This document shows, one piece after another, positions 16,781 to 51,280 of a stretch of DNA of 64,000 nucleotides; the stretch's first letter is position 1, and each line of letters begins with the position of its first letter. The notes under the pieces were generated by a model. That model worked only from the letters and a program-made list of their open reading frames with translations. It did not search any database and was not told the origin of the DNA. Source of the stretch: a candidate division FCPU426 bacterium (GTDB taxonomy: Bacteria > Oederibacteriota > JAAXVQ01 > JAUVAV01); contig JBFLYH010000001.1 in the NCBI GenBank assembly GCA_040756875.1, positions 64,001 through 128,000 of the forward strand. The letters run 5' to 3'. The translations under genes and the position numbers were made by a program.

Positions 16781-19084
16781 ATGCTGGAACGTTTTTCGAG
16801 GTTCGTCATCCGTCACGCCAAACTCATGGTGGCCCTGTCCCTGCTTGCCACGCTGGGCTTCGGTTATCAGCTGCGCTACCTGAAAATCAATTCGGATGTC
16901 CTGACATCCCTGCCCCAGGACGATCCCGTGATCAAGACCTTCAACCAGGTGGGGGAAACCTACGGCGGCAACGCCCTGGCCATCGTGGCCGTGGAAGCGG
17001 ACGACATCTTCACGCCAGGCACCCTGGCCTCGATCCGCGACCTCACCAACCGCTTCCGGGCCATCCCCGGCGTGATTTCAGTCGCCAGCCTGACGCATGT
17101 GATCGACATTCACGACACGGACGGACAGATCGAAATCTCCCAACTCATTGATGAAAACGATTTCCCCCGGACGCCCGCGGCCTGCCAGGCCTTGAAAACC
17201 CGCGCCTTGTCCAAAACCCTGCTGCGCGGCCGGCTGGTTTCGGAGGACGGGCGCCTGACCCTGATCGTCTGCCGCCTGCTTAAAGACAAGGAAAAGGTCA
17301 GCAGCCGGATCAGGGCCGAAGCGCTCCGGGCCCGGGTCCCGGAAAAGCTTTATTTCACAGGCATGCCTTTCCAGTCCAACGAGATCTACCGGTTCATTGT
17401 CAGCGATTTGATGGTGCTGATCCCCATCATCGCGGTCGTTATGAGCCTGGCGCTCTTCCTGAGTTTCCGCACTCTGCACGGGATCTGGCTGCCCCTGCTG
17501 GCGGTGGGCATTTCCACGCTCTGGACCCTGGGGATGATGAGCCTGTTGCGCGTTCCGCTCTCCATTTTTTCGAACATTATTCCCGTGGTGCTCATGGCCG
17601 TGGGCAGCGCCTACAGCATTCACGTGATCAGCCATTACCACGAATCCGGCGCCAGCCTGGATCCGGAGGAACGGGCGGTCGGCAACCTGAAGGATGTCGG
17701 GGTGCCGGTGATCCTGGCCGCCGTGACCACAATGATCGGTTTCGCCTCCTTCATCTTTGGTTCCTATCTGACCATGATCAAAGAGTTCGGCGCGTTCGTG
17801 GCCCTAGGCATCGGCTTCGCCCTGTTCAACTCCCTGACCCTGGTTCCGGCCCTGCTGTATTTGATCCACCCCCAGGCCCGCCGGCCCCATCCCTCCGCGG
17901 ACGGGCGGCTGCCGGGGCCAGGGCGCCTGAGCCGCTTCTGGGCGGGTTTGGTCGTCAGGCACCGCGCCGGCCTGCTGGCCGCGTTCGGGCTGATCGCCGT
18001 CGTCTGCAGCCTGTTCATTCCGCGCATCGACCGCCGGGTGGATTTCCTGGATTACTTCAAACCCGGTTCCGAAATCCGGAAAGCGGAGAACATCATCGGG
18101 CGGTATTTCGGGGGCTCGGTGCCCACCCAGGTCATCGTGCGGGGGGACATCCAGGATCCGGACGTGCTGGCCGCCATGGCGAAGATGCAGGAGGAATTGA
18201 AACGCCAACCCGAACTGCGCAATCCGCAGTCCATCGTGGACTACCTGGTCGAGATGAACGCGGTCATGGGCGAAGGCCGCCGGCTGCCGGACACCCGCGA
18301 AAAGGTCGCCAATCTGTGGTTCCTGCTCGAGGGCGAGGAGGTCATGTCCCAACTGGTCAATCCCGACGCCTCGGAAGCCATCATTCAGGCCGTGCAAAAA
18401 AGCGCCTTCAGCCGGCAGAACAGCCAGATGGTGGAGCAGATTCAGGCCGCCTGCCGGGCGCTGGGGAGCGATAAAGTCTCGTTTGAATTGACCAGCCAGC
18501 CGGTAATTTTCAAAAAATTGGACGACAGCCTGATGCGCAGCCAACGGTCCAGCATGAGCCTGGCTTTGGGATTCATCGTACTGTGCCTGGTGCTGATGCT
18601 GCGTTCCCTGAAAAACGGCCTGCTCAGTGCCCTGCCCATCGCTTTTTCGCTGCTGGTGATGTTCGGGTTCATGGGTGCGGTCCGCATCCCCCTGGACGTG
18701 GCCACGGTGCTTCTGGCGAGCATTACCATCGGCATCGGCGTGGATTATTCGATCCATTTCGCCAACCGGCTGCAGCGGGAACAGGGGCTGGGTTATACCC
18801 CGGACCCGGAGCAGCTGCTGGCCCGCGCCCTCAGCGGTACGGGCAAGGCGATCTGGATCAACGTGGTCACCGTGGCCGCGGGTTTTCTGGTCCTGGTGTT
18901 TTCCAATTTGGTCCCGATCCAGCGGTTCGGCATCCTGGTGGCCCTGACCATGCTCAGTTCCGGACTGGGCGCGATCGCCATCATACCGGTCCTGCTGCTG
19001 CCCGGCCAAAAGCGCCCGCTGGCGCCGCAACCGGCGCAGGCCCCAAAGACCGCCGCTCCGGCGGAAATCAAAGGAGGGAAGTGA
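16781..19084 (+). CDS. MMPL/RND family transporter
   Basis: Two repeats of periplasmic domain plus TM bundle; GSAYSIH and GIGVDYSIHF motifs. Confidence 0.9.
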   Translation: MLERFSRFVIRHAKLMVALSLLATLGFGYQLRYLKINSDVLTSLPQDDPVIKTFNQVGETYGGNALAIVAVEADDIFTPGTLASIRDLTNRFRAIPGVISVASLTHVIDIHDTDGQIEISQLIDENDFPRTPAACQALKTRALSKTLLRGRLVSEDGRLTLIVCRLLKDKEKVSSRIRAEALRARVPEKLYFTGMPFQSNEIYRFIVSDLMVLIPIIAVVMSLALFLSFRTLHGIWLPLLAVGISTLWTLGMMSLLRVPLSIFSNIIPVVLMAVGSAYSIHVISHYHESGASLDPEERAVGNLKDVGVPVILAAVTTMIGFASFIFGSYLTMIKEFGAFVALGIGFALFNSLTLVPALLYLIHPQARRPHPSADGRLPGPGRLSRFWAGLVVRHRAGLLAAFGLIAVVCSLFIPRIDRRVDFLDYFKPGSEIRKAENIIGRYFGGSVPTQVIVRGDIQDPDVLAAMAKMQEELKRQPELRNPQSIVDYLVEMNAVMGEGRRLPDTREKVANLWFLLEGEEVMSQLVNPDASEAIIQAVQKSAFSRQNSQMVEQIQAACRALGSDKVSFELTSQPVIFKKLDDSLMRSQRSSMSLALGFIVLCLVLMLRSLKNGLLSALPIAFSLLVMFGFMGAVRIPLDVATVLLASITIGIGVDYSIHFANRLQREQGLGYTPDPEQLLARALSGTGKAIWINVVTVAAGFLVLVFSNLVPIQRFGILVALTMLSSGLGAIAIIPVLLLPGQKRPLAPQPAQAPKTAAPAEIKGGK

Positions 19085-42987: not shown

Positions 42988-43392
42988 CTATCTCCAGACC
43001 GCGAGCAGGGCGCCGACCAGACCCATGGCCACAAAATGGCAGCCAACTCGGATCCCGAACAGTTTGAACGGGATCTTTTCCCAGATCAGCTCTCCGACCT
43101 CCAAGGGCACTACGAAGCCGACCCAAGCCAGGATTCCGATCGCGATCCCGCCGGCCACGGTCGTGGCTTGCGCGAGGGCAATAAACACCGCCAGTACCAA
43201 AGCCACGAGCAAATGGCCGAGGATGCCTGCAGGCATCCAGCGGACCGCGGGCTTGGAATCGGACTTGGTGAGCTCGGCCCAGGCTTTGCCGAAAAGCAGG
43301 GGCGAGAACCAGAGCAGGTTCGAAACCATGTGGATCAAGCCCGCGACCAGAACTGCCGGATAATTCAATTGCGACCAGACAGACGCCAGCAT
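42988..43392 (-). CDS. DUF1761 membrane protein
   Basis: NYPAVLVA...LWFSPLLFGKAW. Confidence 0.8.
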   Translation of the reverse strand: MLASVWSQLNYPAVLVAGLIHMVSNLLWFSPLLFGKAWAELTKSDSKPAVRWMPAGILGHLLVALVLAVFIALAQATTVAGGIAIGILAWVGFVVPLEVGELIWEKIPFKLFGIRVGCHFVAMGLVGALLAVWR

Positions 43393-43542
43393 GAGGCCTC
43401 CTTGAGGTGGAGAAATGATGTTATAGGCGAAATTATACCTTGTGCGGCCCTGGGCAGGTGTTTTTTGTGTAATAAATGCGTGCATTCCCAGTCAAATAAT
43501 TATAGAATCCGCTTTATATAACCCCCCCAGGAGGAACCCTCT

Positions 43543-44067
43543 TTGCCTCCTACTGCAATCAAGACCATCCGCGATCTGATCTTCTGGGAATACGCCAAAC
43601 TCATATCCCAATCCGCAGGCAAAGGCCGGGACAACTTTGCCTTTGTGATGTTTAAATTCAAGGAACTGCAAAGCAGGGCGATTTCCTGGTCCACGATCCT
43701 CAGGGAAGACCTCAAAACCTCCCGCGATGAATGCGCGTACTGCGGGGCCAAGTCCAACCTCAGCCACGACCACATCGTTCCCAAGCGGGAATGCCACTAC
43801 GACGAGATCCACAACATCGTGGCTGCTTGCAAGTCCTGCAATTCCTCCAAGGGGGACAAGGATTTGATCGAGTGGTATGGCCTTGACCGCCGCGCCGAAA
43901 TCCCCAGGATCGTAATGGGGAAATATCTGAAAATGCTGTACATCTGCCACGAATGCCGGGGGACATTGGCGAAGCGGGATATCAATAAGGATGGGAAGGT
44001 CGATTTGCTGGATTTGGGGTGGATATTCAAGGAGACGTGCGGGGAGAAGGGGAGTGCGCTTAAGTAA
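43543..44067 (+). CDS. HNH endonuclease
   Basis: CAYCG...DHIVP...NIVAACKSCNSSKG. Confidence 0.9.
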   Translation: MPPTAIKTIRDLIFWEYAKLISQSAGKGRDNFAFVMFKFKELQSRAISWSTILREDLKTSRDECAYCGAKSNLSHDHIVPKRECHYDEIHNIVAACKSCNSSKGDKDLIEWYGLDRRAEIPRIVMGKYLKMLYICHECRGTLAKRDINKDGKVDLLDLGWIFKETCGEKGSALK

Positions 44068-44142
44068 ATAAGTTAACTCCTGGAGTTCCCCTGATCATAG
44101 AATTCATAAAAAACGTAAGGGCGGAAAATTAGGAGGTCTAGA

Positions 44143-45015
44143 GTGAGTGAACGGCTTGAGGAAATATTTAAACTGCCAAAAGACACGCCGCCAAAAGCCC
44201 TTTACCACTACACTTCGCGAGAGGGTCTGCTGGGTATTTTAAAGGAACGGGCTATTTGGGCGACAGATATCATGTGTCTTAACGATTCGATGGAATTTAC
44301 TTATGCGGTCGAAATTGCGCGACCACTTGCACTAGAAATGATTAATAATTGTACGGATGAACAAGAGAAAAATGGATACAGAATGATAAGTAGTTTACTT
44401 GAAGAGAGGAATATAGGGCAATTCCGATCATACATTGTTTCCTTTTCAGAAGAAGGAGATTTATTAAGCCAATGGAGGGGCTATACCCGCGCAGGTGATG
44501 GTTATGCTATTGAATTTAACCCGGATATACTTGAACAACTGATTAGAACTAATATTTTGGAGAACAAGGAGTTCTATCTTGCAAAATGCAGGTATGTATT
44601 AAATGAACAGAAGAAAATTGTGGAAGAAGTACTCGAAAATGCACGAAAGATATCCAAAACTGAGGTAGAAGCAGGAATTCCAATTTATGCGGCTATCGTT
44701 AAAAATTTTCTTATTCCTTTTTTATTCATTGCACCTCTTATCAAACACCCGACCTTTAAGCAAGAACAAGAATGGCGGCTTATTGCCTTCTTAGCTGATG
44801 CGACTAACATACTTCAGTTTAAACCGGGCAAGTCAATGCTGATTCCATACATCTCCTTTAAGTTTGATGAAACGGGGTTGCCTTTTAATAAAATAATACT
44901 TGGCCCAAATCCTCATCCGGAACTTAATCGACGAGTAGTTTTGGAACTTTTAGACAAATATGGTGCTACTAATGCAGTATGCACAAGTTCTTCAATACCA
45001 TATAGGGATTGGTAA
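44143..45015 (+). CDS. DUF2971 domain protein
   Basis: LYHYTS, LNDSME, SFSEEGDLLSQWRGY, KHPTFKQEQEWR, IILGP, SSIPYR; AT-rich. Confidence 0.85.
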   Translation: MSERLEEIFKLPKDTPPKALYHYTSREGLLGILKERAIWATDIMCLNDSMEFTYAVEIARPLALEMINNCTDEQEKNGYRMISSLLEERNIGQFRSYIVSFSEEGDLLSQWRGYTRAGDGYAIEFNPDILEQLIRTNILENKEFYLAKCRYVLNEQKKIVEEVLENARKISKTEVEAGIPIYAAIVKNFLIPFLFIAPLIKHPTFKQEQEWRLIAFLADATNILQFKPGKSMLIPYISFKFDETGLPFNKIILGPNPHPELNRRVVLELLDKYGATNAVCTSSSIPYRDW

Positions 45016-45183
45016 TAGAAACAAAATGGGATTAATAAATTTAAAGATGCCGTAATGAATGGGGACGGAGTGGCCCCGTTCACACGGGAGGAAGAATGAC
45101 TGATGAACCGGGACGTTGTTTAAATGTCAAAATGACCCGCGGCCTCCCCAATTGTGCAAGAGGTGCTTGCACAAATTGCTTAG

Positions 45184-45405
45184 TGTAAATGGGGACGTTG
45201 TTTAAATGTCAAAATGTTTACAGTGCTGATATTCACCTGACACCTCCGCCTTTTGCTGGTTGAGCTGCCGGGCTGCTTTCTGGTGTCCCTTTTCCCGCAG
45301 ATGTTTTAACGCCCAATGCCAGTCGCCTGTCCTTCACGACTTATCTCATAAAACCTTTCTCAACTGATGAAAAACGCATTGAAATCCCTCGCCACCGGTC
45401 TAATG
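45184..45405 (+). repeat. 222 bp direct repeat copy 1 (leader of truncated DUF1016 gene)
   Basis: Matches 46789-47010 with 2 mismatches by eye. Confidence 0.92.
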
Positions 45406-45432
45406 GATCAAGAATGTGCGAGGGGGAATATT

Positions 45433-46014
45433 ATGCCCGGCGAAAAAAGAAAGACGCACTTCCAAACCCAGCTCCATAGCCTGCCGTATGATTATGCGCA
45501 AATTCTTGCTGAGATAAAACACAGAATCCATAGTGAACGGTTGCGTGTTGCACGGGCGGCGAATTCTGCCCTGGTTATGCTGTATTGGGACATTGGCAGG
45601 TTAATACTAGGCCGCCAGAAACACGAAGGCTGGGGAACACGTGTCATAGACCGGCTTTCGGCGGATTTAAGGACGTCTTTCCCGGAAATGAATGGTTTGT
45701 CCCCGCGAAATCTTAAATATATGCGTGCGTTTGCCTCGGCATGGCCGAATAGATCAATTGTGCAAGAAGTGCTTGCACAAATTACTTGGTATCATAATCT
45801 TGCTTTGTTGGAAAAATTGAAACCATCAGAAGAAAGGCTGTGGTATGCCCGAAAAAGCCTTGATAACGGGTGGAGTCACAATATACTTGTAATTCAAATC
45901 GAAAGCGGCGCACGCGAACGGAGCGGAAAGGCGCTGCATAATTTCAAAACTACCCTGCCTGCGGAGGATTCGGATCTGGCGGGCCAGGTATTTAAGGACC
46001 CATATGGGTTTTGA
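45433..46014 (+). pseudogene. Truncated DUF1016/YhcG-like gene (N-terminal domain only)
   Basis: Paralog of 47038-48093 ending right after FKDPY; lacks the PDDEXK C-terminal domain. Confidence 0.8.
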
Positions 46015-46221
46015 TCGGGGCCGGAGTTAACTTGTTAACATAGCCAAGAATGGTGCCAGCCGCCATTTCTCTGTTTACTGTGCGGGAAATACTTGCGCAA
46101 ATGACTTGGTACCATGGAGATGCGGGACACTGTGTCCCTGAGATTCATTCAATCAAAACAGCAGGCGTGCTATTATGGGGAATATATTAATTATATTTAG
46201 GCACGGGCTTTATTAAATAAA

Positions 46222-46692
46222 ATGGAGATGAGAATGGAAATACAAATAGAGCCATTGTCTTCCGGAGAACAAGCTCCGCTGGATTTACTGAAGCTTGCTG
46301 ATCCATCTGAAAAAATGGTCGCTTTCTATTTAAGCCAGGGAGAGTGCTTTGTTGCTAAAGAAAGTAATGCTGTGGTGGGAGTTATTATTAGTATGAAAAC
46401 GAAGCCGGATACTTTTGAAATAATGGCCATAGCTGTAAAAACAGAGATGCAGAATAAGGGTATTGGTAAAAGGTTGATTGCTTTTGTACGGGAAAAGGTG
46501 AAAAAAACGGGCGCGAAATATTTGGAAATTGGGACAGGCAATCCCGGTGTGCAACAAATGCTGCTTTATCAAAAATGTGGTTTTAGAATAGTTGGCGTGG
46601 ATTTGGATTATTTCAGAAGAAATCACGATGAAAAAATAATGGTAAATGGCATTGAATGCCGGGATATGATTCGCATGCAAATGGAATTATAA
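46222..46692 (+). CDS. GNAT N-acetyltransferase
   Basis: LADPSE, QNKGIGKRLI, IGTGN, LYQKCGFRI, NGIECRDMI; AT-rich. Confidence 0.9.
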   Translation: MEMRMEIQIEPLSSGEQAPLDLLKLADPSEKMVAFYLSQGECFVAKESNAVVGVIISMKTKPDTFEIMAIAVKTEMQNKGIGKRLIAFVREKVKKTGAKYLEIGTGNPGVQQMLLYQKCGFRIVGVDLDYFRRNHDEKIMVNGIECRDMIRMQMEL

Positions 46693-46788
46693 AGACTAGG
46701 GACGTTTTTTAAATGTCAAAATGTCCTGCGCTCCAATAATCACCCCCTTTACTCCTCCCTGAATACTTCTGCCCTAAATGTTAATAAT

Positions 46789-47010
46789 TGTAAATGGGGA
46801 CGTTGTTTAAATGTCAAAATGTTTACAGTGCTGATATTCACATGACACCTCCGCCTTTTGCTGGTTGAGCTGCCGGGCTGCTTTCTGGTGTCCCTTTTCC
46901 CGCAGATGTTTTAACGCCCAATGCCAGTCGCCTGTCCTTCACGACTTATCTCATAAAACCTTTCTCAACTGATGAAAAACGCATTGAAATCCCTCGCCGC
47001 CGGTCTAATG
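46789..47010 (+). repeat. 222 bp direct repeat copy 2 (leader of full DUF1016 gene)
   Basis: Matches 45184-45405. Confidence 0.92.
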
Positions 47011-47037
47011 AATTAAAACTGTGCGGAAGGGAATTAT

Positions 47038-48093
47038 ATGCCCGGTGAAAAAGTGAAGGCGCGCTTCCATACCCAGCTCAATGGCCTGCCGTATGATTAT
47101 GCGCAAATTCTTGCTGAGATAAAACACAGAATCCAAAGCGAACGGTTGCGTGTTGTGCGGGCGGCGAATTCTGCCCTGGTCATGCTGTATTGGGACATTG
47201 GCCGCCTTATACTTGGTCGGCAGAAACATGAAGGCTGGGGAACACGCGTGATAGACCGGCTTTCGGAGGACTTGAAGGCGGTTTTTCCGGAAATGAGGGG
47301 TTTGTCCCCGAGAAACCTCAAGTATATGCGGGCTTTTGCCTTGGCCTGGTCTAATAAGGCAATTGTGCAGCAGCTTGCTGCACAATTGCCCTGGTATCAT
47401 AACTGCATGCTTTTGGAAAAAATTAATGCGATCCCCCTGCGTCTATGGTACGCCAAGATGGCGCTCACCCAAGGATGGAGCAGGAATATACTTTCACTAC
47501 AGATCGAAAGCGGTGCATACGAACGGAGCGGAAAAGCGCTGCATAATTTTAAAACTACGCTGCCGGCGGAGGATTCGGACCTGGCGAACCAAGTATTTAA
47601 AGACCCTTATTTATTTGACTTTCTCGGCATGGCTGAGCTTAAAAGAGAAAAGCAGGTCGAACAAGCTTTGGTGGATCATATTCAGAAGTTTTTGCTCGAA
47701 TTGGGCGCGGGGTTTGCTTTTGTCGGGCGGCAGGTTAGATTGGACGTTGGCGGCCAGGATTTCATCATTGACCTGCTTTTCTACCATCTTGCGCTCAGGT
47801 GTTATATCGTTATAGAACTCAAAGCCGTGCCATTTGAACCGGCGTTTGTTGGCCAAATGAACCTATACCTATCCGCTGTTGATGATCGTATGCGGCACGC
47901 GGAGGATAAGCCGACGATCGGGTTGCTGCTGTGCAAAGCAAAAAATCGCTTGATCGTGGAATATGCCCTCCGCGATTTGAAAAGGCCGATCGGTGTGGCG
48001 CGATGGGAAACGAAGATCGTCAGGTCGCTACCTAAAAAGTTTGCTGGGATACTGCCTTCGATCGAGCAGATCGAGGAGGAGTTGAAACGTTAA
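47038..48093 (+). CDS. PDDEXK nuclease domain protein, DUF1016/YhcG family
   Basis: LYWDIG, SPRNLKYMR, KDPYLFDFL, FLLELGAGFAFVGRQ, IDLLFYH, VIELK, GQMNLY, TIGLLLC. Confidence 0.95.
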   Translation: MPGEKVKARFHTQLNGLPYDYAQILAEIKHRIQSERLRVVRAANSALVMLYWDIGRLILGRQKHEGWGTRVIDRLSEDLKAVFPEMRGLSPRNLKYMRAFALAWSNKAIVQQLAAQLPWYHNCMLLEKINAIPLRLWYAKMALTQGWSRNILSLQIESGAYERSGKALHNFKTTLPAEDSDLANQVFKDPYLFDFLGMAELKREKQVEQALVDHIQKFLLELGAGFAFVGRQVRLDVGGQDFIIDLLFYHLALRCYIVIELKAVPFEPAFVGQMNLYLSAVDDRMRHAEDKPTIGLLLCKAKNRLIVEYALRDLKRPIGVARWETKIVRSLPKKFAGILPSIEQIEEELKR

Positions 48094-48284
48094 AGCCTTC
48101 GACAGTAGGTTTATACCAACCCGATTCCCCTGCCTCTCCCATACCCCGTATGCTAAAATGCCTGGGGACGTAGTTTGAATGTCCGGATGTCCAGCAGTCT
48201 CTCCTGCTCTTTGTGGACTAAAAGATGTCGTATTATTTTAAGATTAAAAGGTTAAAACAGCCGATGAGCATTATAAATATACCA

Positions 48285-49112
48285 ATGAAACATCCCTTGG
48301 TATCTATTTTAGTTTTCCTAATGCTGATCTGTTTAGTCTCAATTACCCCTTCCTCTGCCCGCGACTGGCCTGAGTCCCGCACTGCGACTATCTACTCCCA
48401 AGGCGCCCGCATTCCTTATCTCCCATCCGGCGGCACGGAAAGCAAACCATCCACCTGCCAAGGCGCTTCCACGCAATTGCGGATCACCCAGGTTCTGGCA
48501 AAAATGCCCCGGCACGACGTGGACCTGGGCCGGACTACGCTGACCTTGCTTTCTTTGGATGGCAAGAAGGAGCTGCTTAAAGAGACCTTTACCGAGGTTT
48601 GGGAATGCCTGGGGTACAATCCAACCGCCAAGCGTTATGTCCTGATCACCAAGAATGAACACGGCACCAAAGTCACTTTGCGCGGCTTGGTCTATTTGGA
48701 AGAGAACCCGGCGAGGTTCAAGGATTCGGTGTTTGGAGAAAAACAGTTTGAAGCTGCGGCGTCCTTGCCCGGGCCGGATGGGAACTATCTGGCGCTGATC
48801 GGCGCTCCGGAAGGGGAAGACACCTACAAGCTGTATGTCCTGAATCTGGTCGCGGACAAACTGCAACTCCTGGGCGATGCGCCTGGCCCTCCGCCTCTGA
48901 CCAAGGAAGATTTGGAATGGCCGGAAGCCTTGGACATGATGGCAGCCTGGGAAGCGCCGGAACGGCACTACACTGAGCTGGAACCAGGCATCTGGTCCTT
49001 CACGAACCCGTCCACCCTGCAAGTCAGCTATGGCAAAGACACCTATAAAGCCCGCAATAAAAAGCGCAGCATAAAAACCTGGGATTTAAAAAGCCTGTTC
49101 AAACCAATTTAG
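48285..49112 (+). CDS. Secreted hypothetical protein
   Basis: Signal peptide from MKHPLV; stop codon overlaps the repeat copy at 49112. Confidence 0.7.
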   Translation: MKHPLVSILVFLMLICLVSITPSSARDWPESRTATIYSQGARIPYLPSGGTESKPSTCQGASTQLRITQVLAKMPRHDVDLGRTTLTLLSLDGKKELLKETFTEVWECLGYNPTAKRYVLITKNEHGTKVTLRGLVYLEENPARFKDSVFGEKQFEAAASLPGPDGNYLALIGAPEGEDTYKLYVLNLVADKLQLLGDAPGPPPLTKEDLEWPEALDMMAAWEAPERHYTELEPGIWSFTNPSTLQVSYGKDTYKARNKKRSIKTWDLKSLFKPI

Positions 49113-49370
49113 GGACGTTGTTTGAATGTCCGGATGTCCCGCGGCCTCGCCTTTTCTCCTCAAACTTGAACCCGTAAATGTTCGATTTCCTTTAAGCATG
49201 GGCGCTTCATCCCGGACCCTTTGCGAAAAAGCCGGGAAGGGGAAAAGAACCAAGGGGATTGAGGGTTGACACTGAGAGCGTAATCTTTTATTAATAGTGA
49301 AAACGGGCTGTCCTCGATATAACCTCCGAATCAAACCGGCTGGCCGTAATCAAAGCGCGCGAGGTATAGG

Positions 49371-50474
49371 ATGAGAAAAAATATCTGGGTCATGGGCATG
49401 ATCATGTGGTTGGCCCTTCCTGCCATGGGGCAGGCGGTCACCTTCGGGGAAACCGGCACTGGCACAGCCGGCAGCACGGTGAACGGTTATCTGATGCTGT
49501 GCCAATTCACCTGCCCGGCGGATGGAACCATAAACCGGATAAACTTGAGAGTTGATTATACGAACGGCAGCGGCCGGGTGGCCATTTACTCCAATGCCGG
49601 GGCCGATCAACCCGGCGTGCTGCTGGCTGAAAGCGCTTCCCAGGGCGTCAGCACCGGCTGGAACACTTTTACCGTCGCTTCTACGGCCGTGAGCAATGGA
49701 GCAACCTATTGGCTGGCCTTTCAATTGAATTCCAGCATTACCGGCGTCCGCTATTACACGGATTCAAACCTGAATAAACAGCGGTATTACAATTACGCCT
49801 ATGCCGCTTTTCCGGCCAACTTGTCCGGCAGCCCGCCCAACGGCTCCCTGGCGGCCCGGACCTGCATCTATGCCTTTGACGTCGAAACGCCGACGCCGAC
49901 GCTCACAGCTTCGGCGACCGCGACGCTCTCCGCCACCATTTCCCCCACGGCGACCATCACTCCCACTGTTACTGACACGCCCACCCTGACCTCCACGGCC
50001 ACGCCCTCGGATTCGCCGACCCGCACCGTCACCACGACCACAACGCCCACAGGCACGATCACCCCGACCGCGACCATCACCTTGACCTCCACCATCAGCC
50101 CGACTTTTACGATCAGCCCGACCGCAACCGTTTCCCCGATGGTCACGGCAACCGTGTTGCCCGCCTCCAGCCTGACCTCCACCCCGAACCTCCTGGCGGA
50201 GGTATTGTTAAACGGGAAGCAGGCGATGGTTTTCCCCAACCCCGCCCGGGATGAGGTCCGGTTCCTGGTGCATCTGGACCGGGCGGCAACCCTGCGGCTG
50301 GACCTGTTCAATTCGAACGGTGAAAGGATCGCGGGCCTGGACGCCGCTTTGCCGGCCGGCCGGGGGCAGGTCATTCAATGGGATTGCCGCGATGTGGCGC
50401 CCGGCGTATACCACGTCCGCCTGCTGAAGGACGGGCAGGCCTGGGAAAAGCTAAAAGTGGCGGTCGTAAGGTAG
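49371..50474 (+). CDS. Secreted protein with beta-sandwich domain, Thr-Pro linker and T9SS type-A-like CTD
   Basis: Signal peptide; RVAIYS...GWN...YWLAF; TPT linker; VFPNP...APGVYHV...KVAVVR. Confidence 0.8.
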   Translation: MRKNIWVMGMIMWLALPAMGQAVTFGETGTGTAGSTVNGYLMLCQFTCPADGTINRINLRVDYTNGSGRVAIYSNAGADQPGVLLAESASQGVSTGWNTFTVASTAVSNGATYWLAFQLNSSITGVRYYTDSNLNKQRYYNYAYAAFPANLSGSPPNGSLAARTCIYAFDVETPTPTLTASATATLSATISPTATITPTVTDTPTLTSTATPSDSPTRTVTTTTTPTGTITPTATITLTSTISPTFTISPTATVSPMVTATVLPASSLTSTPNLLAEVLLNGKQAMVFPNPARDEVRFLVHLDRAATLRLDLFNSNGERIAGLDAALPAGRGQVIQWDCRDVAPGVYHVRLLKDGQAWEKLKVAVVR

Positions 50475-50674
50475 AGAAACAGGGTGGTGAATAGAGACGT
50501 AGTTTCTGAATAGGGACCTGGTTTGAATGTCCGGATGTCCCGCGGTCTTGCCTTCTCCCCTCGTGTCTAAATCGGGAACTCCGGTAGTACAAAAAATCGG
50601 GAGACACCAAGATTGAGAACAGAGTCTGTTTGCTGGTTTAGAAGAAGCGCGTGGAAATGAGCGGCGCGGGGGGA

Positions 50675-51280
50675 CTAGCTCCAGGTGAATTCGAGGACGC
50701 AATGCGATTTGCCCTGCCGGATGCATTGCAATTGCCGGGCCCGGACGCTCTCGGCGCCGGAGTATTGCAGCGCCGTGGAGACCCAGCCTTCGCAACCCAC
50801 GCAGACGGATTGTTTCCAGACCTGCGTATCGTGCATGTGATATACCACCCGTTTGTCTGCGACCTCGGCCACGCTCATGCTTCCGGGCGTGAAATAGCGT
50901 TTGAAAATAGCCGGCACCCGTTTGGCGATGAACAGGGGAGTGCCGATCTTTAAAAAAATCGTCAGGACCGTGCTGAGATCGTGAAAAGCCGAAAAAGCGG
51001 CGAGTTCCCGAAAAAGTCGGGGATCCCCGTCATTTAAGGAAGCCAGGTAGTCGTAGGTTTGAAGAAAGAGGCGGCCCGGCAAACGGGAGACAGACAGCAC
51101 CTTGTCCGAGGACCAGTACTCGGCGTCCTGCGGGGGCAGTTGGGCCAAAAAACGTTTATACGCCTCCTGGCCCAGGCTTTCTTGAAACCAATGCCTGCCC
51201 CCCAGGAGCAGGGTGGCGCGAAAAAGCGGGTCTGCCATAGGCGGCGGCTTTCCCTTCTCTGCAGTATCTGCCTTATTCAT
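50675..51280 (-). CDS. V4R/H-NOX-like (DUF2378-like) protein, paralog 3
   Basis: FRAT, VLSVSRLP, IFKRYFTPG, QCIRQGKSHCVLEFTW. Confidence 0.65.
   Translation of the reverse strand: MNKADTAEKGKPPPMADPLFRATLLLGGRHWFQESLGQEAYKRFLAQLPPQDAEYWSSDKVLSVSRLPGRLFLQTYDYLASLNDGDPRLFRELAAFSAFHDLSTVLTIFLKIGTPLFIAKRVPAIFKRYFTPGSMSVAEVADKRVVYHMHDTQVWKQSVCVGCEGWVSTALQYSGAESVRARQLQCIRQGKSHCVLEFTWS

Follow-up and report, generated by a model that had tools for sequence, protein, structure and literature searches.

A DNA palindrome kept on one codon of DUF1016/YhcG genes, with loose copies beside them

Within a contig of a candidate division FCPU426 bacterium (NCBI GenBank assembly GCA_040756875.1, contig JBFLYH010000001.1, positions 64,001 to 128,000 of the forward strand) two nearby genes of the DUF1016/YhcG family each hold a palindrome inside the coding sequence, and the two palindromes differ in their letters. 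We refer to this whole stretch of 64,000 nucleotides (nt) as the window, and give all coordinates within it. The question that the locus raises is why a protein-coding gene should keep the symmetry of a segment whose sequence changes: is the symmetry a by-product of the peptide, a structure in the RNA, a site in the DNA, or the trace of a mutational process?

The first of the two genes (47038-48093, + strand) is intact and encodes a protein of 351 amino acids (aa) with both domains of the YhcG/DUF1016 family (Pfam PF17761 and PF06250): DUF1016_N (3.8e-42; 144.1 bits against a gathering cut-off of 32.8) and YhcG_C, a PD-(D/E)XK nuclease domain (1.4e-62; 210.6 bits against 32.5). The second gene is a truncated paralog (45367-46014, + strand) from which the nuclease domain is absent and in which only DUF1016_N is matched (4.6e-41; 140.6 bits). 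No other DUF1016_N matches were found in the 3.2-Mb genome.

The palindrome of the intact gene, GGCAATTGTGCAGCA-GCT-TGCTGCACAATTGCC (47358-47390), consists of two arms of 15 nt, 100% complementary, around a centre of 3 nt; it encodes (K)AIVQQLAAQLP and is centred on the first base of codon 113. The paralog has TTGTGCAAG-AAGTG-CTTGCACAA (45758-45780; 9+5+9) in the same codon register, the common centre of both being the first base of the fifth codon of IVQQL and IVQEV, respectively. Two inner pairs differ between the genes, in each case on both sides (G-C to A-T and C-G to G-C). Two further versions lie outside the DUF1016 genes. Solo copy 1 (45149-45184, 36 nt, with its palindrome at 45152-45174) is 92% identical to the paralog site, with identical arms, and is placed between two dispersed repeats about 180 nt upstream of the open reading frame (ORF) of the paralog. 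Solo copy 2 (about 46075-46115), a decayed fragment of the DUF1016 type that reads TVREILAQMTWYH, overlaps an ORF of 46 aa (46050-46190). Taken as a direct-repeat family of four with 45149-45184 as the reference, the identities are 92% for 45755-45790, 67% for 46075-46110 and 69% for 47360-47395. The original prediction, made from the letters of the window alone, had described palindromes in the full gene (perfect over 15 bp) and in the truncated paralog, and four versions with two of them outside genes; all are present where it placed them.

Folded as single-stranded DNA and compared with 200 shuffles per site, the sites differ in strength. Folding energies are -18.9 kcal/mol (z -6.9) for the site of the intact gene, -9.4 kcal/mol (z -4.5) for that of the paralog and -9.8 kcal/mol (z -3.5) for solo 1, and for each of these three not one of the 200 shuffles was as good. 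Solo 2 reaches -3.2 kcal/mol (z -0.5), a value matched by 51 of the 200 shuffles, and is not a significant hairpin. The imperfect symmetry ascribed to it earlier was a correct observation: the hairpin is lost, and solo 2 is a decayed relic, neither a working operator nor a donor.

A palindrome fixed on one codon of DUF1016_N

Close homologs of the intact gene were collected from 80 loci, with proteins 52-67% identical to that of the window, which span Clostridia, Latescibacterota, Spirochaetia, metagenome-assembled genomes of the Acidobacteriota type, Betaproteobacteria, Elusimicrobiota, an archaeon and others. At the nucleotide level AATTGTGCA..TGCACAAWT is kept in 80 of the 80 loci, and the inner stem occurs in three versions, each complementary: AAG/CTT (encoding E..L), AAC/GTT (R/Q..V) and AGC/GCT (Q..A). 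In a thinned set of 42 homologs (below 85% nucleotide identity to each other; mean pairwise identity 0.63) the third codon position has a mean entropy of 1.49 bits. Apart from Trp and Met codons, the only codons below 0.6 bits are 108, 110, 111, 115 and 116, all of them in the arms, and a 9-codon window at codon 112 has a third-position entropy of 0.56 against a median of 1.52. At codon 108 the residue varies widely (2.52 bits), yet its third base is kept (0.16 bits). With the centre held fixed, these homologs form on average 11.8 of 15 Watson-Crick pairs against 7.1 under synonymous resampling (p<0.01 in 33/42), so that their palindromy exceeds that of codon-shuffled controls. The palindrome is neither due to chance nor forced by the peptide.

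Its register explains how the constraint is felt by the gene. Since the centre falls on the first base of a codon, each first position faces a first position in the other arm, and each second position a third. Symmetry therefore freezes synonymous sites and couples amino-acid changes across the arms.

The same register is found far beyond the close homologs. In the phylum of the window DUF1016_N was found in 39 of 99 genomes, with up to 10 matches per genome. A wide set was formed by adding 30 and a further 40 loci and the yhcG region of E. coli K-12; of the 167 domains aligned with an iterated profile, 157 extend over the centre column, and these gave 145 unique segments of 69 nt and 107 distinct cores. 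Among the 90 cores with arms of at least 8 (one mismatch allowed), 87 share one centre nucleotide in the alignment. The best arm averages 9.78 over the 107 cores against 5.51 in synonymous shuffles, with p<=0.01 in 58/107 and p<=0.05 in 79/107. In about 17 of the 107 no palindrome of at least 8 coincides with the aligned column; several of them come from genes that have an insertion, and there the palindrome stands some codons upstream (e.g. L234, L235, L265, L273 and L274), and from a few it may truly be missing. Arms are unrelated between subfamilies, as in ATTCTTGACGCA-C-TGCGTCAAGAAT, ATTTCCGAGACA-C-TGTCTCGGAAAT and the E. coli version AAGATTTGGCAGAC-G-CTGTCTGCCAAATCTT; yhcG of E. coli K-12 thus has the palindrome with arms unrelated in sequence.

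The original prediction had proposed that covariation of the arms be sought across DUF1016 genes, and it was found. In an ungapped alignment of 41 columns, 88 sequences and 12 pairs, 87.8% of the cells are paired (62.1% in shuffles), changes on both sides affect 220 cells (68.6 in shuffles), and the covariation score is 0.593 against 0.147, a value reached by 0 of 500 shuffles. Because the sequences are related, these shuffle counts are not to be read as probabilities; the synonymous-shuffle tests and the slid controls are free of this weakness, and when the partner was moved by 1-3 columns pairing fell to 29.5-38.6%. The segment in the window is a local instance of a family-wide DNA palindrome that is fixed on the first base of one DUF1016_N codon. 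From one subfamily to the next the arms change in sequence, and so does the peptide that they encode, but from position 2 to about position 13, counted from the centre, their Watson-Crick complementarity is preserved.

Taken position by position over 87 sequences, the pairs also tell which nucleic acid is under constraint. Positions 2-9 are Watson-Crick in 72-87 of the 87, and for the pairs of second with third codon positions the synonymous expectation is only 26-49 (observed against expected: position 2, 72/30.7; position 5, 79/25.9; position 7, 87/31.3; position 8, 85/38.7). The first-position pairs (3, 6 and 9) are largely fixed by the residues, with an expected pairing of 70-78 even after synonymous shuffling. 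This is the one point that speaks for a by-product of amino-acid sequence and codon usage, an account that the second- and third-position pairs, far above expectation and complete at position 7, and the varying residue with its kept third base at codon 108 leave with virtually no chance of being right. Position 1 is not enriched (44/87 against 39.6 expected), so that about three central bases are free.

Non-pairs at positions 2-9 comprise 9 G.T or T.G against 34 others in 704 cells, wobble thus making up 21% of them against 17% if random. Synonymous A-to-G and C-to-T changes would give G.U pairs that are tolerated in RNA, yet they are rare, which points to a constraint on DNA complementarity. 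In an RNA hairpin in the mRNA, controlling its translation, stability or processing, such pairs should be frequent. A strong hairpin is indeed possible on the sense strand, and solo 2, if read as RNA, would hold 8 pairs by means of three G.U. There is, however, no G.U excess over the family; a search of 43000-51000 against Rfam 15 (E<=1) gave no match at the sites, the only hit being BLV_package (E 0.7, 43502-43551); and loose copies stand upstream of genes and past a stop codon. We therefore hold a role in the mRNA to be very improbable, and conclude that the constraint acts on the DNA and not on the RNA. Selection at the DNA or RNA level, as first proposed, stands as to a constraint on the nucleic acid (the frozen synonymous sites confined to the arms, the excess over shuffles and the covariation) and is narrowed to DNA by the lack of a G.T excess.

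Several arrangements within the family were seen alongside these results. In E. coli K-12 (L208, NC_000913.3, locus 17828-18955) yhcG has two in-frame palindromes a few codons apart, encoding ..EIHQTMSGEL.. and ..KIWQTLSAKS.., both with a CAGAC-N-CTGTCTG-like core; in-gene palindrome arrays are thus present in a model organism. At L222 (G027:C2:71147-74557), L264, L265 and L276 two DUF1016 genes or fragments lie side by side, each with its own palindrome variant, and in the phylum of the window extra palindromes were seen inside the second DUF1016 copy of such tandem loci. As several genomes of the phylum have adjoining DUF1016 pairs, the tandem arrangement of the window is a common one. A different palindrome, AAGTATACA-N3-TGTATACTT, with its variants, occurs about 290-410 nt from the DUF1016 palindrome centre at L225, L229, L238, L253 and L264, all of the same phylum. 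It lies upstream in most of these, there near the gene start, and may be a shared promoter or operator element.

Loose copies, dispersed repeats and the question of recombination

Loose palindromes of the DUF1016 type adjoin the genes in other genomes as well. The symmetry of several surpasses that of the in-gene copy, and most often they have the arms of the neighbouring gene. Upstream copies were found at L012 (with the loop of the gene and one change, made on both arms), at L034 (perfect arms of 12 nt) and at L049 (with the arms of another subfamily). In a Clostridia clade loose copies lie at most 90 nt past the stop codon at many loci, and TAATTGTGCCACAG-C-CTGTGGCACAATTA, with arms of 13-14 nt, is found at L017, L028, L037, L040, L043, L052, L076 and L077. 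Ten genes have GTGGCAC as their right arm, which is a synonymous change at the cost of the pairing within the gene; a GTGCCAC..GTGGCAC solo accompanies 9 of them. Of the GTTGCAC genes, 5/17 have a solo of the GTGCAAC..GTTGCAC type; one locus is discordant (L040) and one mixed (L054). From the sequences, this agreement fits half-site matching or copying between the sites, or may simply reflect two clades.

Over 574 kb of loci, 97 perfect palindromes (arms of at least 9, loop of at most 7) were counted off the gene site against 17.7 in shuffles, and many of them are terminators and other elements. An automated matching of solo half-sites to gene arms was abandoned, as the 45 of 184 palindromes that matched at 7/8 or better were mostly chance; the clear cases were read individually instead. 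Viral contigs were scanned for TTGTGCA-N7-11-TGCACAA, which gave 117 stretches, and 80 loci were examined; all 89 matches lay in loci without a DUF1016 profile match (E<=10) and were put down to chance.

Within the window the history of the two genes can be followed from their repeats. An upstream block is nearly identical between them (45184-45395 and 46789-47000, 99-100% identity). In an ungapped comparison at offset 1605 the 5' coding parts are 84-92% identical, identity falls to 53-68% in the middle (about 45750-45900), starting near the palindrome, and it is 88% again at 45904-45993. The homology of the paralog to the intact gene ends near 46005, and just past this end stands a copy of the R2 repeat (GGGGCCGGAGTYAACTTRTTAAC, 46021-46039, + strand). 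R2 has 9 copies in the genome, among them those at C1:1040869, C2:199667 and C3:164329, and an inverted partial copy stands at 44061-44080; one copy was seen just upstream of the second of two Y1_Tnp genes, and two abut R-like copies directly.

The R repeat itself (GGGACGTTGTTTRAATGTC..., 25-45 nt) occurs 27 times in the genome when up to 3 mismatches are allowed, clustered in a few islands. In the window it is present 7 times, always on the + strand and in most cases directly downstream of a gene. A long form (45110-45148) abuts solo 1 on its left; to its right a short form (45192-45216) starts the upstream block common to both DUF1016 genes, and the copy at 46797-46821 heads that block at the intact gene. 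The remaining copies are at 46699-46744, 48165-48210, 49112-49157 and 50513-50558. A comparison by eye of the R repeats with core boxes of integron attC sites was unconvincing, and this identification was dropped because R flanks a Y1_Tnp gene in inverted orientation.

The genome has two Y1_Tnp (IS200-like) genes of 336 aa, one flanked by inverted R copies (C1:1033667 and C1:1034731) and the other preceded by R2. The protein of the R-flanked gene has a DnaA_C-like helix-turn-helix (HTH) below the Pfam cut-off, and the gene shows the layout of a repetitive extragenic palindromic (REP) element with its REP-associated tyrosine transposase (RAYT) gene. R and R2 belong to REP-like systems and are not the same element as the palindrome. 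They explain both the truncation of the paralog, which was cut by a REP-like repeat and not at the palindrome, and the isolation of solo 1.

These data bear on the proposal that a recombinase, or else the DUF1016 nuclease, uses the palindrome for crossover or cleavage, so that segments of genes or entire cassettes are exchanged, excised or inserted at it, with the solos as att-like scars or donors. Some solos adjoin genes of a subfamily other than their own (L049, L089 and L256), the paralogs of the window are mosaic with the drop in identity near the palindrome, and DUF1016_N is multicopy in the phylum with many fragments. As we read the match table, 28 fragment ends are internal, and 12 of them lie about the palindrome, at profile positions 77-97 (binomial 0.0019). 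This count is weak, since the conserved W.H anchor that follows the palindrome biases where profile matches end. Passages of one study (PMC9881135) describe DUF1016 genes as enriched next to the targets of programmed inversion (odds ratio 17.4) and inside type I restriction-modification (R-M) operons; there, however, DUF1016 is the neighbour of the inversion targets and not itself the target.

The direct tests gave no support to exchange. Among 861 pairs of the 42 homologs 8 have a significant mosaic breakpoint, at codons of about 50-60 and 170-190, and none at codons 100-120. No recombinase gene adjoins the locus among the window ORFs that were scanned. In public sequencing data no RNA run with the locus is listed, and it occurs in one DNA run, a groundwater metagenome available as contigs only and thus blind to rare variants, in which no joints, inversions, variants or indels were seen at the four sites; loose ends occur there only at the dispersed repeats (45106-45188 and 46796) and at 46039. 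The variants at 47358-47390 that were to be looked for at read level are accordingly absent from this single run of contigs. Together with the cut of the paralog at R2 instead of at the palindrome, these results make a recombination site decidedly unlikely, and the idea of the solos as donors for the swapping of this peptide, which had accompanied it, finds no breakpoint where the palindrome lies and, in solo 2, a copy that has decayed.

The N-terminal domain and the origin of the symmetry

If not recombination, what could a DNA site inside its own gene serve? The model of the whole intact-gene protein has a mean predicted local distance difference test (pLDDT) of 76.4. The fold of the C-terminal domain matches PD-(D/E)XK nucleases, namely the nuclease domain of AdnA (Z 9.0) and NucS (Z 8.8), and also Cas4, Hjc and others. 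The N-terminal domain modelled alone reaches a pLDDT of 95.5, and its top structural matches (VIA-align, all against representatives) are Spo0J (Z 7.4; root-mean-square deviation 2.7 over 90 aligned residues), ParB-parS (7.1), KorB-operator (6.4/6.3) and SopB-DNA (5.7/5.5). The PDB searched by sequence gave no match at E<=0.01. A homodimer of residues 18-166, predicted from two copies, scored 0.75 against 0.19 for the best control, a mark that was reached by 20/30 proteins solved as pairs and by 1/23 solved as single chains. The runs have at least 89% of their contacts in common with a partner pLDDT of at least 87, and the predicted contacts are made by the long first helix and helix 70-86. 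This supports, at the level of models, an N-terminal domain that forms a symmetric dimer. Residues 108-117, which the palindrome encodes, form in the models a short helix with a turn, straight after an HTH-like pair of helices (70-82 and 91-103).

We tentatively favour, as the best single reading though one short of even odds, that the palindrome is a structure-forming cis-acting DNA site, a dyad or a hairpin, which is used by the N-terminal domain of the protein that it helps to encode. The symmetry would then be kept because the DNA serves in cis, either as a dyad duplex or as an extruded hairpin or cruciform; as the arms vary in sequence and always pair, the hairpin or cruciform is more consistent with the data than the duplex. 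The N-terminal domain, as a predicted symmetric dimer with a ParB/KorB-like HTH, would recognise the site, and its use might be autoregulation, or the parking or loading of a candidate defence nuclease on its own locus. It is known that parS sites occur within or beside spo0J/parB genes. Solo 1 would be an additional site, or one that was retained, matching the truncated paralog that it precedes, and solo 2 a dead relic. Such a site would account for the DNA-level constraint, the free centre, the adjoining solos, the fold and the predicted dimer. A putative binding site embedded in coding sequence, as in the original prediction, is retained; the recombination site offered beside it has little support.

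Several results weigh against a site for the N-terminal domain. The fold matches lie below the trust line (Z<8, in a helical domain), and Foldseek searches with the full and the N-domain models returned nothing at E<=0.001, with ParB, Noc and Spo0J ranking first (best E 0.68); the hits are consistently of the ParB type, with scores under the caution line, so that the likeness is to be taken as a lead. The presumed recognition helix (GFS.RNL.YMR.F) is nearly invariant, while arm positions 3-9 use all four bases over the family. A half-site reading thus needs a reader that varies along with the arms, for which the only variable candidate is the arm-encoded peptide, and this pushes towards recognition of a structure or towards a mutational origin. 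Palindrome integrity does not visibly depend on an intact nuclease (8.64 of 11 pairs in truncated and 8.82 in intact genes, p=0.27). Common ancestry confounds the agreement of solo arms with gene arms, and in five of the Clostridia solos the centre is of even length, which brings the half-sites 1 bp nearer to each other. A scan of 44950-47100 for sigma-70-type promoters, in an organism that may use others, found 5 sites against 4.4 expected and none at solo 1. Finally, an operator could sit anywhere, so that a binding site alone fails to explain one fixed codon across bacteria and archaea.

A stronger version would explain that codon. In this self-referential site the palindrome encodes residues 108-117 of the ParB/KorB-like domain whose symmetric dimer docks on that same palindrome or hairpin, the nuclease would be tethered or gated by its own gene, and loose copies would be extra docking sites. 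We regard it as unlikely. If it were true, the coupling would explain why the site never leaves its codon, and the defence nuclease would mark its own locus.

The main rival to a site for the N-terminal domain is a quasi-palindrome that maintains itself and has no function as a site: once it had arisen in the ancestral gene, intrastrand template switching during replication would revert mutations in one arm or copy them into the other, synonymous changes would be dragged into non-synonymous partners and purged, and relics would outlive the genes as small perfect palindromes. Ripley-type quasi-palindrome correction is reportedly a template-switch model for such arm-to-arm copying. It predicts what is seen in the DUF1016 case, namely arms that are exactly Watson-Crick complementary, an unconstrained loop and mutations that appear in both arms at once; it is described as a mutational hotspot at individual loci and is not known to hold the palindrome of a gene family over deep time.

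The strict Watson-Crick pairing without G.T tolerance and the free central bases, as a hairpin intermediate needs, would be expected from template switching, as would free arm sequences with a kept symmetry, non-coding solos whose symmetry equals or exceeds that of the in-gene copies (the 14-nt arms of the L017 type and the 12-nt arms of L034), the both-arm change with the same loop at L012, and truncated copies that keep their palindrome like intact ones. Against it, the process would have had to act at the same nucleotide in almost all lineages of a family that spans bacteria and archaea (87/90), and we know of no comparable fixed palindrome in other bacterial gene families. An A.G mismatch at position 5 persists in 10 Clostridia loci despite an available synonymous correction, the odd arm being there the arm of the neighbouring solo, and solo 2 of the window has decayed and was not corrected. 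Coding palindromes beside protein function are on record for Nematomorpha mitochondria (PMC6649704), which speaks for the process. On balance we consider a purely self-maintaining palindrome somewhat less likely than the cis-acting site. Symmetry at positions that no protein reads matters only if the strands pair with themselves or if the mutation process makes symmetry, for which reason the structure-forming cis site is preferred.

Island setting, comparable systems and meaning for the family

The two DUF1016 genes lie in a stretch of low guanine-plus-cytosine (GC) content (0.40-0.53 at 44-49 kb; flanks about 0.6), with all of its genes on the + strand. Its other members are an HNH protein with weak PtuB-like matches (43543-44067), a DUF2971 protein with weak PDC-S31 matches (44143-45015), a GNAT acetyltransferase (46222-46692) and two proteins without a clear family. 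In this composition the island (43543-50474) resembles a small defence or accessory island. The intact DUF1016 gene matches the candidate defence family PDC-S02 of PADLOC (1.6e-147, residues 17-350), on which no experimental paper was found in the literature listing that was searched. DUF1016 genes are also described on rickettsial conjugative elements (in passages of PMC4316617). In the literature on DUF1016 and yhcG, in the titles, abstract openings and passages covered, no description of a palindrome in these genes was found.

The arrangement is like that of ParB-parS, KorB with its OB site and Noc with its NBS site, in that a dimeric helical DNA-binding domain (in our case a predicted dimer with a putative DNA-binding fold) goes together with a palindromic site in or next to its own gene. 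Sites of the ParB family have a conserved sequence and occur in many places, whereas the sequence of the DUF1016 palindrome is free and only its symmetry and codon position are kept; the DUF1016 palindrome, unlike those sites, encodes part of the domain itself; and no N-terminal CTPase domain of ParB was seen in the DUF1016 protein, the partner domain being a PD-(D/E)XK nuclease.

A second likeness is to REP and REPIN elements, with their RAYT proteins (HUH Y1 type): these too are short hairpin DNA elements, recognised as single-stranded structures, with loose intergenic copies. However, the DUF1016 palindrome has three clear copies and one decayed copy in a 3.2-Mb genome, all within 2.3 kb; it is part of a coding sequence and accompanies a PD-(D/E)XK gene, and both Y1_Tnp genes of this genome are flanked or preceded by R and R2 instead.

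The closest case of symmetry in coding sequence is that of Nematomorpha mitochondrial genes, for which Mikhailov et al. 2019 (PMC6649704) describe perfect inverted repeats within the coding sequence, both arms of which encode functional protein. There, as in DUF1016, protein function and a DNA or RNA structure are kept together. The Nematomorpha repeats are many, of up to 284 bp and in few mitochondrial genomes, whereas DUF1016 has one palindrome of about 25-33 bp on one codon in bacteria and archaea.

DUF1016/YhcG is a very common uncharacterised nuclease family, found in defence islands and type I R-M operons and with a copy in E. coli K-12. That its genes hold to a DNA symmetry against synonymous drift, so that one codon of the protein is shaped by it across phyla, makes them a rare and clean example of non-coding constraint within coding sequence. 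If the palindrome is the DNA site of the protein itself, it would be the first concrete substrate for the family, and one that can be approached in a model organism. If it is instead self-maintaining, template switching can preserve a structure over deep time, which would affect the use of covariation as evidence of function.

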